From NCBI RefSeq assembly GCF_045037415.1, contig NZ_CP173438.1: 64,000 nt of DNA; one strand, 5' to 3'. How positions within the stretch are numbered: position 1 is the stretch's first letter; each line of letters begins with the position of its first letter. Source of the DNA: Escherichia coli (GTDB taxonomy: Bacteria; Pseudomonadota; Gammaproteobacteria; Enterobacterales; Enterobacteriaceae). The notes beneath the pieces were generated by a model. It was not told the origin of the DNA, did no database searches, and saw only the letters and a program-made list of their open reading frames with translations. Positions 19,002 through 63,797 of the stretch are shown one piece after another. Both the position numbers and the translations under genes were made by a program.

Positions 19002-19309
19002 AAGCTGCTCCCGGGCTTGCGAAAGCCCATGTCCATATTTTTGATGGAAGAAACAATAGGCAATCGCAGGCGGAGCAAACAGTGGATAAAAAGGCCATTT
19101 ACTGGACTTTTGTAATATCAGTACAAAAATGCGATCCGCCTCATAACTTGCGATAATCCGGAAGTACGCCGCAAAACGGCGTCTTGTGAGACGCGTCGCA
19201 AATTGACGGTTACATTACATTTGTCCAGCTTTTGGCAGATTTGTCACATGGCAGGCCGTTGCCGTGCGCTCTTATCCTGTAAACAGAAAACCGTACCGGG
19301 AGAAAGGCA

Positions 19310-28026: not shown

Positions 28027-28920
<894 letters not shown>

Positions 28921-28969
28921 TTACCTCATCAATCGCTTATCGTTATATGTTGTGTTGTGCACATCTATC

Positions 28970-28995
28970 CGTTTAGACGTCCAGATGTAAAGATG
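28970..28995. promoter_or_regulatory. MetJ operator (met boxes) of metF promoter
   Basis: tttagacgtccagatgtaaag contains AGACGTC met-box repeats upstream of the metF start. Confidence 0.6.
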
Positions 28996-29216
28996 AAGGA
29001 AAAGCCGAAGGGCGTCAACCGAAAAATAACCAATGATGGTGAGGAAAAATCAGGGAAGATGAAAAAAACTCATCTTAATTAGAGGCGATAAAAGATTTCT
29101 CTATAGCGCAATCCACCTCGCACGTTTTGACTCATATTCTGACAACACAGCGACACCTGGGCTAATTCGAAAAACAACGTCCTGCCACCGGATGGTGATG
29201 TTAAGGCATCTGATTC

Positions 29217-29238
29217 GGCCTGCGCCCTCGCGTAGGCC
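29217..29238 (-). terminator. imperfect hairpin downstream of the nucleotidase-like gene
   Basis: ggcctgcgccctcgcgtaggcc, 8-bp stem with one mismatch, about 60 bp beyond the minus-strand stop at 29299; no clear U-tract. Confidence 0.3.
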
Positions 29239-29298
29239 GAATACAGGATCTGCGCAATCAACGGGTAACAAACAGTTGAGTCAATTCAGTGCGCACTT

Positions 29299-30852
29299 TT
29301 ATTTGATATCCTTCACGCGCATACCGTTGAGCTGTTCATCCGTAATGGTGTTGCCCGCTTTGAAGTAATCAACCACCGCGTGATAAACGTAATAACCGCC
29401 CGTTGTGTTACGCGCTTTCCCTTCGGTAAAGGCGGTAAAACCATCTCCACCATCAGCAAGGAAACTCTGAGTAGCAATGTGATAAACCGTCGCATCTTCA
29501 ATGGGTTTGCCATTCAAAGTCAGTGTGATTACCCGCTGACCAACCGGCCTGTTGCTGTCGTACTTCATTTCCAGGCCTTTCGATACCTGTAAAACGCCAT
29601 TGCTTAAACTTGCGCCGTGTTCCATCAGACTGCGTAATTGTTTACCCATGAGTTCCATCGTCACCAGTTCGTTGGGGAACGGAAACGTACTGATGACGCC
29701 GCCCATCGTGATCGCCCCTGCGGGGATCTCATTGCGGATACCACCAGAGTTTGTTAACGCCAGTTGGGTGTTTTTACCCGCCGCTACCAATAAAGCGTCA
29801 GCCGCCAGGTTCCCGAGGGAAGCCGATTCACCATAGGCACGTTTTAATTCAACCGGCGATTGCGCCACCGTTTGTTGCACCACTTCATCAAGCTTTTTAT
29901 TCCAGCCGTCGATCACCTGTTTCGTTTGCGGATCGGGCTTCCACTCGTCAGCGTAAATGGTTTTAAGCTCGAAGTTTTTCACCGTAAAATTATGCGGCTT
30001 CTCTTTGTAGTCGAGAACCAGTTTGCCCACATCAATCCCGCCGCTGTCAGTGGAGAGGATGAGCGTATTGCCGACTTTAATCGGTTCCGGCGTACCCACA
30101 TGTGCATGTCCGGTGATCAAAATATCCAGCCCTTTCACCTGACTTGCCGTCTGAATATCTTTATCCAACGCGCGACGCACATCTGTGCCTCCCATACTGG
30201 ACTGGCGGGCTGGAACACCTTCGTGGATCAGGGCGACGGTCAAATCAACCTTGCCTTTGAGTTCATCGATATAACGTTGTAGCCATTTAATTTCATCGCG
30301 CGCTTCAATACCCACGCGCGTGGCAGCAGATACCGTATCATTAAAGGCAAATACTCCGTGCAAACCAATAACGCCTATTTTCACACCGTCTTTTTCGATG
30401 ATGGTATAGGGCTTATCCCAGAATGATTTACTGCTGTTCTGATAAAAAATATTGCCCTGCACAATAGGGAATTTTGCCTGGCTCAACTGTAATAATGTGT
30501 TGTCCCAGCCGTGGTCAAATTCATGGTTGCCTATTGTGACGGCATCAAACGGCATAGTATTCATAATATCGATAATAGCCTTACCTTTGGTCAGGCTGCT
30601 GATATATGGCCCGGTAAAATAGTCGCCCGCATCAAAAAACCATGTCGCTTTATTTTTTGCTTTTTCTTGCTTAACCAGCGTAGTGATATTTGCCCAGCCG
30701 CCAATATCCCGTTTACCGTCAGCGATCCACGGCACTTTATAAGGCTCGACATGTGCATGGAGGTCGTTGGTATAAATGATGGTGACATCTTTAGCGCAAG
30801 CCCAGAATGGCAGTGTTAATGCGATACCCGCAGCAAGTATTTTAATTTTCAT
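29299..30852 (-). CDS. secreted bifunctional metallophosphoesterase / 5'-nucleotidase-family protein (UshA/CpdB-like); not in K-12 at this position
   Basis: 517-aa ORF with signal peptide [20 protein letters not shown]; calcineurin-like motifs [38 protein letters not shown]; C-terminal half consistent with 5'-nucleotidase substrate-binding domain. Confidence 0.8.
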
Positions 30853-30984
30853 AAACAGTCCCTTTCAGTGAGATAAAGGATTGCTACATTACGTTCTGAA
30901 AGACTTATTTATGTGAGAGTAATCACATCCGCAGGGGATAGTTGCCGGACAAAATCAACGACCTTGTGAAATCGTTGGTGATAT

Positions 30985-32115
30985 ATGTCGACTCTGTTTA
31001 CGATTAATGCCTGTAAGTCGTTTGGTTGCCGTAATTTAGGGCAGCCAACATCGACAGATTATAGCTGGCCCGACTATCGACTGGGTTATCCGGCACTGCA
31101 CTGTCGGGCATGTGGCAGTTACCCGCCGTTGTTTGACGAGCAACAATTTCGTGACTGGTTGACAGTTCACTTATCTACTTTTGCAACAGAGAAAGGCCAT
31201 TTTTGCCCGGTATGTTATGGCACAGAGACGATTTGTTATGGTCACAATCCACAGGGTTCGCAACGCATTCAATGCCGTAACTGCAAAAAAGTATGGACAC
31301 CCAAACAATATCAGAAAGAAATAACGACTCCCGAAATAATCGAAACGGTTGCTTTGCTCGTGCCATTTCAGGGAGTCAGCAGCGGGCAGAAACTGTATGT
31401 TTTAATCAGTTTTGATGCTCTTCGCGGTAATATTCTTCATCTTTCTACTAATTACACGCAGCATCAGGCTGGAGAAAGTCTGCATTATCGATACAGAGGA
31501 AATGCAGAACCAGAGTTACACGACAATAATATTGTACAACGCGTTGATATGCGCGAAGCACAATTTCTACGCCGCAGTCAGTTTGATGAAATTCAGTATG
31601 GCAGCGCAGCGCTCAAGCGCAATGCCAAAGGCGCTATTCTGCGTCCGGTTATCACTGCACACGGGCATTTCAGAGTACTGAATATTTTATTCCCTACAGT
31701 AAAAACACATGTAATTTCACACGAGTGTTTTTTAAGAGGTGCCATTATTACGGCCTGGGCTGATCTGTTTCGCCAACAGCAAGGTGAAATTTGGTTTATT
31801 GAAGAGGAAATAGCTGACGATACCGATAATATGCCCTGGCGTTTTCAGGGAAAAACTTATCACGGCTGGTGGAAAAATCAGTGGCAACTCTGGGTTCAGG
31901 GAAAAAATCGTAAAATGGTATGTGCATTAACGGGCGGAAAGAGTAGCAAAGCAGAAATGCTCTCTTTAGCAACCAGCAGACATTTTATCGACTGGCTACA
32001 TAAACAAGCAGTATTTACTCACAGCGCCCCGCTTTCCGCAGGGCGCGTTACGCAAATACTGCTTTCTCTGGCTCAGGATTACAACAACTGCGCCAGTCGG
32101 TTAATATCCGACTGA
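30985..32115 (+). CDS. cysteine-rich zinc-ribbon protein, transposase-like N-terminus (IS1 InsA / IS1595-type zinc finger), C-terminal domain of unknown function
   Basis: 376-aa ORF; CxxC pairs at C10/C15, C40/C43, C74/C77, C97/C100; CPVCYGTETICYGHNPQGSQRIQCRNCKKVW parallels the IS1 InsA CPxC...QRYxCxxCxKxW pattern; hand-estimated GC near 42 percent; last 37 nt overlap the antisense metL 3' end. Confidence 0.65.
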   Translation: MSTLFTINACKSFGCRNLGQPTSTDYSWPDYRLGYPALHCRACGSYPPLFDEQQFRDWLTVHLSTFATEKGHFCPVCYGTETICYGHNPQGSQRIQCRNCKKVWTPKQYQKEITTPEIIETVALLVPFQGVSSGQKLYVLISFDALRGNILHLSTNYTQHQAGESLHYRYRGNAEPELHDNNIVQRVDMREAQFLRRSQFDEIQYGSAALKRNAKGAILRPVITAHGHFRVLNILFPTVKTHVISHECFLRGAIITAWADLFRQQQGEIWFIEEEIADDTDNMPWRFQGKTYHGWWKNQWQLWVQGKNRKMVCALTGGKSSKAEMLSLATSRHFIDWLHKQAVFTHSAPLSAGRVTQILLSLAQDYNNCASRLISD

Positions 32116-34511
32116 ATCGCCCCGGCGGTGACGTCGCGCCCTGCACCTGGCCCGCGGATCACCAGCGGGTTGTCGCGATACCAGCGGCTTTCGATGGCAA
32201 AGACGTTATCGCATGGCAGTAGTGATGCCAGCGGATGGTCTTCACGCACCGCTTCCACGCCCACACGCGCTTTGCCATTGGCATCGAAACGCGCCACGTA
32301 GCGCAGCACCAGCCCCATTTCGCGGGCCGCTTCCAGTCGTTGCACCATCTGCTCGTTAAGTTCATCGCCATTTTCAAAGAAATGGTCGATGCTGCCGCCT
32401 TCGCAATGGGCAGGCACCAGTGATTCAACACGTACCTGGTCCGGTTCAATGTTGTAACCCGCTTCACGCGCCAGAATCACCAGCTTGCGCATTACGTCTT
32501 TGCCGGAAAGGTCATCACGCGGGTCAGGTTCGGTTAAGCCTTGCTGCCACGCCTGATCCACCAGTTCGGTAAACGGCACGCTACCGTCGAATTGCAGGAA
32601 CAGCCAGGAGAGCGTGCCGGAGAAGATCCCACTGATCGACAAAATGGTATCGCCGCTGTCGATCAGATCGCGCACGGTATGGTTGATCGGCAAACCCGCA
32701 CCGACGGTGGCGTTGTACAGCCAGTGACGCCCGGTTTTTTCGAAGGCGTCGTGGATCTGGCGATATTTATTGCTGTCGCTTGCTCCTGCCAGTTTGTTGG
32801 CACTGATGACGTGGAAACCGTGGCTGGCGAAATCAAGATACTGGTCAGCGAGCTGCTGGCTGGCGGTAACGTCCAGCACCACTAAATCATCATACGGATG
32901 GGCGCGCATCCACAGGAACAGCGACTCTTCATCCTGCTCGACCGCTTCATCGTTGAAGAAGGCTAACGCGCGGCTGGCGTCCAGACCGTCATAGCTCAAC
33001 AGGCTACGGCGGCTGTCCACCACGCCTGCCAGCACAAATTCAAAGCCGGTACGTGCCGAAAGCGTACTCTGCTCACGGGCGAACAGTTCCAGCCAGCGGG
33101 AACCGATATTGCCCTTGCCGAACAATACCAGGCCGATGCGTTTTTCCGCGCGGAAGACGGACTGATGCAGCCCCTGAATCAGGCTTTCGGTCGGGCCGGT
33201 GCGCAGTACTGCCACCAGGCTGATGCCGTCATCGGACTGCCAGGTAAATTCGACCGGCTGGCCTTTCAGTTGCTGCCAGAAGCGGTGGCAATGCAGCGGG
33301 TTACGGGTGACGCCCGCCCCAACCATCGCCACCAGCGCCAGCCCCTGACGCAGGCGCAGTTCGCCAGGTAATCCCGCTTCGTCGAGGATTTTCAGCGCAC
33401 TGTCGGCCACTTCTGAGGTGTAGCAAAATTGCAGCAACTGGCGATCGTTATGCACGCCAACCGCCAGTGGACGTACCTGAGCACGTTTCAGGATCTGGTC
33501 GATCTCTTTATGCGCCAGTTTGAAATCCTGGCTGGCGGGCACCTGAAACTCAATCAAGCAGACATCATCATGGCTGGTGACAATACGCGCACCAGTACCG
33601 GAGGCCAGCACGCGTTCAATGCGCGTGGAACCTTGATCCGGCGTGTAGCTACAGCGCAGTTGCAGGTCGATTTCGCTGCCAGAAACGGGCTGTAAAGTAC
33701 GGGCATGAAGAACGGGAGCCGCCAGACGCGCCAGTTCGCTGGCTTCATCCAGACGCAGCAACGGCAGCAGGCAGGCATCTTTCACTTTACGCGGGTCGGC
33801 GCTATATACCCCGGCGACGTCGCTCCAGATGGTTACGCGAGAAACACCCGCCAGCGCACCGATTTGTGTCGCGGAATAGTCGGAACCGTTACGCCCCAGC
33901 AGCACCGTTTCACCGGCGTTGTTACGGCTGATAAACCCGGTCACCACCAGACGTTTGCCCGGATGTTGTACCAGTAGCTGTTGCAGCAACGGGTAAGAAA
34001 GCCCTTCATCAACCTGCGGTTGCGCAGCGCGTTCAGCGCGTAAAAACTCGCGGGCATCAAGCCAGGCCGATGGCAGCCCTTGTTGATTAAGCACCGCAGA
34101 CATCAGGCGCGCCGACCACACTTCACCGTGGCCCACCACTTCCGCATACACCGCATCGTTAATACCGCTGTCGAGCAACGCCGCCAGGCGCTCAAGATCG
34201 CTGACAAAAGCGCTAATGAGGTTATCGGCTTCTTCGGCGGGTAGCAGGCCGCTAATCAGATCGCACTGATAACGACGTAATGTTTGTTGAACCTGATGCG
34301 CAGAGAGACGATCGGTCTGGCTTAGTTTCAACCAGTTAATCAACTGGTTAGTGGTGCTACCGGCGGCGGAAACCACCATCATATCGTCAGGCTGAGAGTA
34401 CTCCGCCATAATGCCCGCGACACGCAAATAACACTTCACATCAGCCAGACTACTGCCACCAAATTTATGCAGTTGACGACCTTTCGCCCCTGCCTGCGCA
34501 ATCACACTCAT
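32079..34511 (-). CDS. metL: bifunctional aspartokinase II / homoserine dehydrogenase II
   Basis: 810-aa ORF MSVIAQAGAKGRQLHKFGGSSLADVKCY... ending DINRLAQLL. Confidence 0.97.
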   Translation of the reverse strand: MSVIAQAGAKGRQLHKFGGSSLADVKCYLRVAGIMAEYSQPDDMMVVSAAGSTTNQLINWLKLSQTDRLSAHQVQQTLRRYQCDLISGLLPAEEADNLISAFVSDLERLAALLDSGINDAVYAEVVGHGEVWSARLMSAVLNQQGLPSAWLDAREFLRAERAAQPQVDEGLSYPLLQQLLVQHPGKRLVVTGFISRNNAGETVLLGRNGSDYSATQIGALAGVSRVTIWSDVAGVYSADPRKVKDACLLPLLRLDEASELARLAAPVLHARTLQPVSGSEIDLQLRCSYTPDQGSTRIERVLASGTGARIVTSHDDVCLIEFQVPASQDFKLAHKEIDQILKRAQVRPLAVGVHNDRQLLQFCYTSEVADSALKILDEAGLPGELRLRQGLALVAMVGAGVTRNPLHCHRFWQQLKGQPVEFTWQSDDGISLVAVLRTGPTESLIQGLHQSVFRAEKRIGLVLFGKGNIGSRWLELFAREQSTLSARTGFEFVLAGVVDSRRSLLSYDGLDASRALAFFNDEAVEQDEESLFLWMRAHPYDDLVVLDVTASQQLADQYLDFASHGFHVISANKLAGASDSNKYRQIHDAFEKTGRHWLYNATVGAGLPINHTVRDLIDSGDTILSISGIFSGTLSWLFLQFDGSVPFTELVDQAWQQGLTEPDPRDDLSGKDVMRKLVILAREAGYNIEPDQVRVESLVPAHCEGGSIDHFFENGDELNEQMVQRLEAAREMGLVLRYVARFDANGKARVGVEAVREDHPLASLLPCDNVFAIESRWYRDNPLVIRGPGAGRDVTAGAIQSDINRLAQLL

Positions 34512-62773: not shown

Positions 62774-62807
62774 TTATCGGATCGTTGTTTTTATTTTGAA
62801 AGTGATC

Positions 62808-62880
62808 ACAAAAAAACCACCGCCGTTGGCGATGGTTCATTTTTTAAGCTGCAATGCGGCGTAAACGCCTCATTGCAGCA
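62808..62880 (-). terminator. sodA terminator region (two hairpins)
   Basis: On the minus strand: gctgcaatgaggcgtttacgccgcattgcagc, then accatcgccaacggcggtggt followed by ttttttt. Confidence 0.6.
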
Positions 62881-63610: not shown

Positions 63611-63797
63611 CCGTACTTTTCATAAGGGTATGGTTTTGCAGGAAAATGCCCAAGATGTGAAGCAAATCACCCACTTAATGCCGTGATTGCCAGTAAATCG
63701 GCAGCGGCGGCAACAGGCGAAAGGTTAATCGACAGCTCAATTTTTACACTCATCTCGTCGGAGATGTGACGCGACGAAAAATGATGAGGATAAGAAG

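Follow-up and report, generated by a model that had tools for sequence, protein, structure and literature searches.

The 132-bp spacer at positions 30853 to 30984 of an Escherichia coli genome segment of 64,000 nucleotides (the window; contig NZ_CP173438.1) separates two divergent genes, nuc, which encodes a secreted 5′-nucleotidase, and zn, which encodes a zinc-ribbon protein. We found that this spacer carries a perfect core for binding of the cAMP receptor protein (CRP) at its midpoint, that the position of the site and the geometry around it are conserved across genera, and that no canonical promoter is present for either gene. Judged from its sequence and its conservation, the spacer is probably a compact, activator-dependent bidirectional promoter region, in which class II activation by CRP would be combined with a second regulatory layer. 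The initial annotation of this DNA, which was made from open reading frames (ORFs), had the coordinates and the divergent arrangement of the spacer right, exactly 132 bp between two start codons that face away from each other. It missed the CRP site, and it is this site, not AT-richness, that organizes the spacer.

A CRP site at the midpoint of the nuc/zn spacer

The predicted CRP site spans 22 bp (30909 to 30930; TTATGTGAGAGTAATCACATCC) and is centered at 30919.5. Its core, TGTGAGAGTAATCACA (30912 to 30927), matches TGTGA-N6-TCACA without a mismatch, and it is the sole perfect CRP core in the 64 kb, where 0.055 would be expected. The center of the site lies 67.5 bp from the ATG of nuc and 65.5 bp from the ATG of zn, which is the midpoint of the spacer. 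Since the second-best core in the spacer has 4 mismatches, the spacer contains a single CRP site. The CRP-controlled genes cytR and glpF of the window have upstream cores that agree less well with the consensus, the best of each carrying 2 mismatches; cytR is among the listed CRP targets (PMC3105977). Three further cores in the window carry 1 mismatch (19185 to 19200, 62795 to 62810, and 63656 to 63671), and the first of them, TGTGAGACGCGTCGCA, is located in the divergent frwC/ptsP spacer.

A scan of a genome collection yielded 36 loci from about 15 genera, 35 of which include the upstream region. In all of these 35 loci, nuc and zn are divergent and separated by a spacer of 131 to 140 bp. A perfect CRP core is present at the same position in 26 of them, with 12 different N6 sequences, and the remaining loci keep TCACA and show 1 or 2 changes in the left half-site. 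When 26 cross-genus sequences were compared, conservation amounted to 100% for TCACA and 92% for TGTGA versus 51% for the N6 between them. Constant half-sites around a drifting N6 appear here as the classic footprint of a site for a dimeric factor. Furthermore, indels are confined to the two extreme ends of the spacer, and therefore its internal geometry is fixed. Between genera, the spacer is 74% identical versus 42% identity at the four-fold degenerate sites of nuc, which are saturated, and this difference indicates that the spacer is under strong purifying selection. The suggestion of the initial annotation that this DNA is a regulatory region shared by two divergent genes was thus borne out by purifying selection, by a nearly fixed length and spacing, and by the conserved CRP site at the midpoint.

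Predicted class II promoters on both sides of the CRP site

A scan with the sigma-70 consensus did not place a promoter for nuc or zn in the spacer, the sole match having its −10 element inside the nuc coding sequence. Likewise, a position weight matrix scan revealed no −35/−10 pair above background, as the best scores in the spacer did not exceed the median of 240-bp background tiles. Having no −35/−10 promoter above background is the pattern of activator-dependent promoters, and by these scans there is no functional −35 hexamer in either direction, as is expected of class II promoters. Thus, the back-to-back promoters anticipated by the initial annotation are not there as canonical −35/−10 pairs, but conserved −10-like hexamers were found on both sides of the CRP site.

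On the nuc side, the best hexamer is TAATGT on the minus strand (30886 to 30891; TAAnnT in orthologues), which scores 3.6 bits. Its 5′ end is 28.5 bp, and its center 31 bp, from the CRP center, and the placement is the same in 28 of 29 orthologues. On the zn side, the predicted −10 element is CAAAAT on the plus strand (30950 to 30955; CAnAAT in orthologues), which scores 3.8 bits and is 96% conserved; it lies 30.5 bp from the CRP center, with its own center at 33 bp, and it is the best hexamer there in 27 of the 29 orthologues. A2 and T6 of both hexamers are conserved in orthologues. From the hexamer spacing and the predicted starts, the implied CRP positions are about −40.5 for nuc and −41.5/−42.5 for zn. 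For class II promoters, the position of CRP is −41.5, where it overlaps the −35 element, and a weak −10 element about 32 bp downstream of the CRP site is enough for such a promoter (PMC2859248).

We propose that one cAMP-CRP dimer binds the site at 30919.5 and, as a class II activator, can bring RNA polymerase to promoters on either side. Leftward, it would serve a nuc promoter with its −10 element TAATGT at 30891 to 30886, a predicted start at about 30879 to 30881, and CRP at about −40.5. Rightward, it would serve a zn promoter with its −10 element CAAAAT at 30950 to 30955, a predicted start at about 30961 to 30962, and CRP at about −41.5 to −42.5. Under these predicted starts, the leaders would be roughly 25 to 30 nucleotides (nt) long. 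With no usable −35 element on either side, the two promoters should have little activity unless CRP is present, and carbon limitation would turn on nuc and zn, as it does other enterobacterial nucleoside/nucleotide scavenging genes.

In a model study by El-Robh and Busby in 2002, one bound CRP reportedly served divergent promoters. Eleven natural E. coli cases of a single bound CRP at divergent promoters have been compiled, including araBAD-araC, xylAB-xylFGHR, and glpEGR-glpD along with eight more (Shimada et al. 2011, PMC3105977). The nuc/zn spacer resembles these in having one site in a short gap, with carbon-source or scavenging genes as the targets. What sets it apart is that its CRP core has no mismatch and lies exactly in the middle, flanked on either side by −10-like hexamers at class II distance. 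Being absent from K-12, the locus does not appear in any of these compilations. The design of one CRP site serving divergent promoters is already known, and the nuc/zn spacer is a further example of it. In comparison with the class II promoters galP1 and synthetic CC(−41.5), the shared features are the predicted overlap with the −35 element, the lack of a −35 hexamer, and a weak −10 element at about 32 bp (PMC2859248), whereas the predicted CRP positions in the spacer, −40.5 and −41.5/−42.5, are not exactly −41.5.

Several observations weigh against two-way activation by CRP. Both −10-like hexamers are weak (3.6 to 3.8 bits), and their spacing deviates by 1 bp in each case from the ideal of 32 bp. 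Either strand of the quasi-palindromic block TACATTA can be read as a −10 element (TACATT on the plus strand, 5.8 bits), and it is conceivable that plus-strand transcription starts upstream of the CRP site and that CRP acts as a repressor. At some paralogous loci that are not located between metF and metL (in Enterobacter, Pluralibacter, Rahnella, and others, and at locus L034), the left half-site is TGCGA, TGTGC, or TGGGG. A literature search by guessed CFT073 locus tags (c4890 to c4892) found no paper on the locus. Finally, one CRP dimer cannot serve two polymerases at once on one DNA molecule, and only one of the two directions may be a real CRP target.

The last point leads to control in one direction, in which CRP would activate one gene, most plausibly nuc, while the other would be transcribed from a promoter that is either weak and constitutive or regulated in another way; on this view, the site is central only because the spacer is short. 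Such a scheme accords with the established inability of class II CRP to contact two polymerases simultaneously. It also accords with five remote lineages in which zn lies downstream of a nucleotidase gene in the same orientation, where a single upstream control region suffices, and with locus L044, where the CRP site is 69.5 bp from a deoB-like gene and 201.5 bp from zn. However, −10-like hexamers with invariant A2 and T6 are conserved at a near-ideal class II distance on both sides in 27 to 28 of the 29 orthologues, and the 130-bp spacer of a homologue 41% identical to zn is also symmetric, with the CRP center 64.5 and 66.5 bp from the two starts. We therefore regard one-way control as unlikely, although it deserves to be kept in mind.

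A proposed second regulatory layer and the zinc-ribbon protein

The leftward gene, nuc (29299 to 30852, minus strand; ATG at 30852 to 30850; RefSeq WP_000694068.1), is an ORF for a 517-amino-acid (aa) secreted bifunctional metallophosphatase/5′-nucleotidase. Its product matches the Pfam families Metallophos (2.8e-12) and 5_nucleotid_C (2.2e-38), its N terminus, by direct sequence reading, reads as a Sec-type signal peptide, and the ATG start is kept in orthologues. The Shine-Dalgarno sequence of nuc, as read from the DNA, is AAGGGA on the minus strand (30859 to 30864), 6 nt 5′ of the ATG, and the block around it (30858 to 30878) is 81% conserved across genera. The rightward gene, zn (30985 to 32115, plus strand), encodes a 376-aa cytoplasmic protein with a double Cys4 zinc ribbon. 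A putative Shine-Dalgarno-like sequence of zn, GGTGAT on the plus strand (30977 to 30982), matches the 3′ part of the extended Shine-Dalgarno sequence UAAGGAGGUGAUC, and GTTGGTGA is also present 5′ of the ATG in the spacer of the 41%-identical zn homologue (L045). RefSeq annotates no feature under the 132-bp spacer.

Two conserved elements stand out in the spacer beside the CRP site. The first is block B (30885 to 30902; TACATTACGTTCTGAAAG), which contains the predicted nuc −10 element and the invariant TTCTGAAAG (30894 to 30902). The block is 91% conserved in the 26 cross-genus sequences, and its positions T37, T38, A39, C40, T42, T43, G46, A47, A48, and A49 are invariant in 30 of 30 sequences. 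Within this region, TTACGTTCTGAAAG (30889 to 30902) is invariant or nearly so, and it is not accounted for by the CRP box, the −10 hexamers, or the Shine-Dalgarno sequence. TTCTGAAAG may be an operator or a contact for the C-terminal domain of the RNA polymerase alpha subunit (alpha-CTD). It would lie across the nuc core promoter and, seen from the zn promoter, 17 to 20 bp upstream of CRP, which is where alpha-CTD contacts DNA (PMC2859248). The second element is the inverted repeat CAACGA-N10-TCGTTG (30956 to 30977), which the CRP box, the −10 hexamers, and the Shine-Dalgarno sequences likewise leave unexplained. It is a candidate operator that would cover approximately −5 to +17 of the putative zn promoter. 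Its left arm, loop, and right arm are conserved at 88%, 69%, and 100%, respectively, and the right arm falls within the invariant 11-mer AAATCGTTGGT (30969 to 30979). Covering the zn start and leader, the repeat would occupy a classical repressor position.

The second layer would then consist of TTACGTTCTGAAAG over the nuc core promoter and the inverted repeat over the zn start site and leader, and the most likely binder of both blocks would be the zinc-ribbon protein, as a DNA-binding regulator of the locus and of its own gene. Elsewhere in the window or in the long variant of the nuc-zn island (see below), the invariant motifs were not found beyond chance-level 9-mers. A comparison by eye of block B with DeoR, PurR, PhoB, and ExuR/UxuR operators gave no convincing match, which is weak evidence. 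An operator for the zinc-ribbon protein in the spacer, as put forward in the initial annotation, is plausible.

The repeats in the leaders could alternatively act at the RNA level, with transcription starting further upstream than predicted and hairpins in the 5′ leaders masking the ribosome-binding sites (CAACGA/UCGUUG for zn; CUUUCAG/CUGAAAG or UCCUUU/AAAGGA for nuc). Both repeats are 94 to 96% pairable across 30 sequences (96% for the zn repeat), each 3′ arm overlaps the Shine-Dalgarno region, and the variants of the zn left arm are mostly transitions that keep G-U pairs. On the other hand, no pair shows a compensatory two-sided change, the sequences fold no better than their shuffles (z = −0.5 to −0.6; −0.49 for the zn repeat), and no Rfam match at an E value of ≤1 was obtained over 28800 to 32300. 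With class II starts, the 5′ arms would also be outside the transcripts. RNA-level control is quite improbable on this evidence.

The zn protein contains two Cys4 clusters, formed by C10/C15/C40/C43 and C74/C77/C97/C100. The second ribbon (residues 74 to 105) resembles the N-terminal zinc-binding domain of InsA/IS1/IS1595. zn itself is below the domain thresholds (14.9 bits versus 26.1 for PF03811 and 21.8 versus 28 for NF050000), but PF03811 is significant in 15 of 55 family members (best E = 4e-08). Because of these 15 matches, the ribbon domain of zn is probably homologous to the InsA type and divergent here. The structure of zn was predicted by AlphaFold using 55 diverse family members from an exhaustive profile search, which gave a pLDDT (predicted local distance difference test) score of 94. 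In this model, the C terminus adopts an RNase H-like fold of the DDE-transposase type. A candidate acidic triad comprises D144 (D/E in 42 of the 55 members and C or L in the others), D201 (D/E in 48), and E247 (E/D in all 55). A sequence search of the PDB and PADLOC found nothing for the zn protein.

The multiple copies, varied sites, and terminal inverted repeats by which a mobile element is recognized were not found for zn, which sits beside a nucleotidase gene in 35 of 35 loci. Since it is single-copy and syntenic, zn has the look of a domesticated transposase, not of an insertion sequence. In IS1, InsA is a zinc-ribbon protein that binds the terminal inverted repeat over its own promoter and represses it. 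zn has the InsA/IS1595-type ribbon in common with InsA, and it also has a conserved inverted repeat over its own predicted start and leader. The two differ in that zn is single-copy, syntenic across genera, and devoid of mobile-element terminal repeats, in that its model lacks a helix-turn-helix, and in that its own Pfam and NCBIfam scores are below threshold.

Remote homologues of zn, at 20 to 41% identity, were placed on contigs in 11 cases, and 10 of the 11 adjoin nucleoside or nucleotide genes. Of these 10, four are divergent from NupC-PNP, DeoB-PNP-NupG, NupC-DeoC-DeoA-DeoB, or a 5′-nucleotidase gene, five are located immediately 3′ of a 5′-nucleotidase gene in the same orientation, and one is downstream of a nucleoside phosphorylase gene. 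CRP cores with at most 1 mismatch are present in 6 of the 11 upstream regions beside these homologues, versus 0.17 expected, the distance to an adjacent start codon being 64 to 71 bp for four of these cores. In the 41%-identical homologue, the design matches that of the nuc/zn spacer, namely, a 130-bp spacer with a CRP-like site at the midpoint. Thus, the zn family is very likely functionally linked to nucleoside/nucleotide scavenging, and a role for zn as a local regulator is plausible.

Two results speak against zn as the DNA-binding factor of the spacer. No helix-turn-helix was seen in the zn model, and the enrichment of k-mers in 12 regulatory regions near the remote homologues was not significant after multiple testing, the most suggestive being ACGATT (8 of 12), CGCAAAC (6 of 12), and ATGTGA (8 of 12). 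We therefore advance only tentatively the idea that zn belongs to a previously undescribed family of domesticated IS1/IS1595-like transposases that were exapted as regulators of nucleoside/nucleotide scavenging operons in gammaproteobacteria and that bind the spacer blocks with CRP. If so, zn would bind CAACGA-N10-TCGTTG and/or TTACGTTCTGAAAG and act together with CRP, and it would perhaps have retained a transposon-end/promoter recognition mode like that of InsA. As a lead, this putatively transposase-derived family is more unusual than the spacer itself.

Base composition, distribution, and age of the locus

The initial annotation described the spacer as markedly AT-rich (32 to 43% GC), as part of inserted DNA, and as a typical target of silencing by H-NS. 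The GC content of the spacer is 40.2%, and that of the three 60-nt lines is 31.7, 41.7, and 40.0%. The spacer falls at the 3.8th percentile of all 132-bp windows in the 64 kb, which mainly reflects the contrast with coding DNA. As an intergenic comparison set, we used the 27 regions of at least 40 bp in the annotated first 50 kb. Their mean GC content is 45.0%, the seven divergent spacers among them average 41.9%, and the nuc/zn spacer is the 6th lowest; katG/metF (36.0% GC) and M20/sthA (32.8% GC) are core-genome spacers that are more AT-rich. Thus, the AT-richness reported for the spacer holds for the individual lines and against coding DNA but not against the intergenic DNA of the window, for which it is ordinary.

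As to H-NS, the spacer has no extended tract with an AT content clearly above that of ordinary intergenic DNA, and its longest run of A/T only is 8 bp. The high-affinity H-NS nucleation motif, TCGATAAATT, has no match within 2 mismatches in the spacer. In favor of AT-rich, horizontally acquired promoter DNA that is mainly an H-NS silencing target, the nuc-zn two-gene segment has a GC content of 45 to 48%, which is below the 52 to 58% of the flanking metF and metL, and the two genes are variably present in E. coli. Yet the spacer has a GC content typical of intergenic DNA, core spacers are more AT-rich, and the block-wise conservation points to sequence-specific factors rather than to composition. 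In addition, at least five other genera have the pair at this site, and its synonymous divergence is saturated. With a core-like intergenic GC content, no motif, no long A/T tract, and no sign of recent acquisition, the proposal of an H-NS target found no specific support, and we consider it quite improbable as an account of the spacer.

The genes of this region are, in order, katG, metF, nuc, zn, metL, metB, and metJ, the gene annotation being taken from E. coli strain 21AR0275, which is identical to the window over the first 50 kb. The 3′ end of zn overlaps that of the convergent metL by 37 bp (32079 to 32115), and the last 12 zn codons are the complement of the metL coding sequence. The nuc-zn pair was found in 1,837 to 1,840 of 5,426 complete E. 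coli genomes and is missing from K-12-type strains. zn occupies one place per E. coli genome, and the 132-bp spacer is plasmid-borne in 2 of 1,840 carrier genomes. In K-12-type strains, about 190 bp of unrelated sequence is present at the site, with the left junction near 29068 and the right edge at the metL stop (32079). The difference between carriers and noncarriers is a replacement rather than a clean insertion or deletion. The K-12-type filler (L002 1519 to 1866, versus window 29068 to 32078) has an annotated 44-aa hypothetical ORF.

The pair is present at the same metF-metL site in Citrobacter, Klebsiella, Kosakonia, Phytobacter, and Superficieibacter, and in Kluyvera it adjoins metF. 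Identity at four-fold degenerate sites between the window and these genera is 0.35 to 0.48 for nuc and 0.52 to 0.60 for metL, such that nuc is at least as diverged as metL. Moreover, nuc and zn follow their host in GC content. Because of the shared site across genera, the deep synonymous divergence, and the host-tracking GC content, ancient residence with loss in some E. coli lineages appears at least as likely as insertion. The description of the locus as inserted DNA is thus right in that the pair is variable in E. coli and absent from K-12-type strains, but it is at odds with the same site in other genera and with the deep divergence of nuc. In Salmonella enterica subsp. arizonae (L037), the pair appears degraded, with only zn residues 126 to 368 matched, and in Kluyvera genomosp. 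3 (L036), nuc matches in three pieces, suggesting frameshifts.

Different variants of the island exist. In the short variant, the end of zn directly abuts core DNA. In the long variant, as found in E. coli GU2018_CL13 (L040 1433 to 8623), metF and metL flank nuc and, in the opposite orientation, zn, nuc2, nuc3, and a gene for a Tsx paralogue. This variant corresponds to genomic region GR31, described as a putative nucleoside processing and uptake system in a paper that does not discuss zn or regulation (PMC12928451). The 233-bp gap between zn and nuc2 is very AT-rich by eye and has none of the spacer motifs, and in CFT073, a uropathogenic strain with the long variant, c4894 is the tsx paralogue of the island. 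In the window, nuc and the spacer are 95 to 100% identical per 100-bp block to GU2018_CL13, whereas zn (window 30999 to 32115 versus L003 5086 to 6215) shows 58 to 84% nucleotide identity from about 31000 onward, with a patch of 95 to 96% at 31100 to 31300. This pattern suggests that zn is mosaic within E. coli, with recombination breakpoints just inside the gene. In strain AVS0456 (NZ_CP124490.1, 4551181 to 4555258), IS1A is inserted in the segment and a "cytoplasmic protein" (zn) is annotated twice, consistent with a zn split by the insertion. Three assemblies carry two paralogous nuc-zn loci (L005/L013, L007/L033, and L024/L034), one between metF and metL and one elsewhere; a further nucleotidase gene lies behind nuc in L013 and L034 and further off in L033.

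Known CRP targets of K-12 in nucleoside/nucleotide scavenging are tsx, cpdB, deo, udp, cdd, nupC, and nupG (PMC3105977). The nuc-zn locus fits the same theme, as nuc encodes a UshA/CpdB-type periplasmic phosphoesterase and the long variant includes a Tsx paralogue. It differs from the K-12 genes in that the spacer has no convincing CytR or DeoR operator and in that the neighboring candidate regulator belongs to neither the LacI nor the DeoR family but is a transposase-like zinc-ribbon protein. A CytR-type layout as at deoP2, with two CRP sites about 53 bp apart and the CytR repressor between them, would suit the nucleoside-related function, a second TGTGA at 30965 (53 bp from the center of the first site), the loose likeness of GTTGCCGG-ACA-AAATCAAC (30941 to 30959) to paired CytR octamers (consensus, GTTGCATT), and the enrichment of the words CGCAAAC and TGCAAA near remote homologues, but it is very improbable, and the second site was rejected, as the latter has 4 mismatches in 10 core positions and is not conserved, its TGTGA is not kept outside Escherichia/Pseudocitrobacter spacers, and the GTTGC segment is in the least conserved part of the spacer (53%).

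Our literature search found no paper on regulation of the nuc-zn spacer. With class II activation from the central site, the accessory genome of E. coli would gain a strongly conserved predicted CRP target, which about one-third of the complete genomes carry. Extraintestinal pathogenic E. coli strains and ATCC 25922, whose spacer is 99.2% identical, are among the carriers, and Klebsiella, Citrobacter, and Enterobacter have it too. The prediction is that the periplasmic nucleotidase module is a scavenging system induced by carbon starvation, to which the long variant adds two nucleotidases and a Tsx channel. With its symmetric geometry, the spacer may be a naturally suited system in which to study how a single CRP dimer is partitioned between two class II promoters. 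If it is true that zn reads the invariant blocks, the zn protein would be a rare case of a bacterial DDE transposase turned transcription factor.

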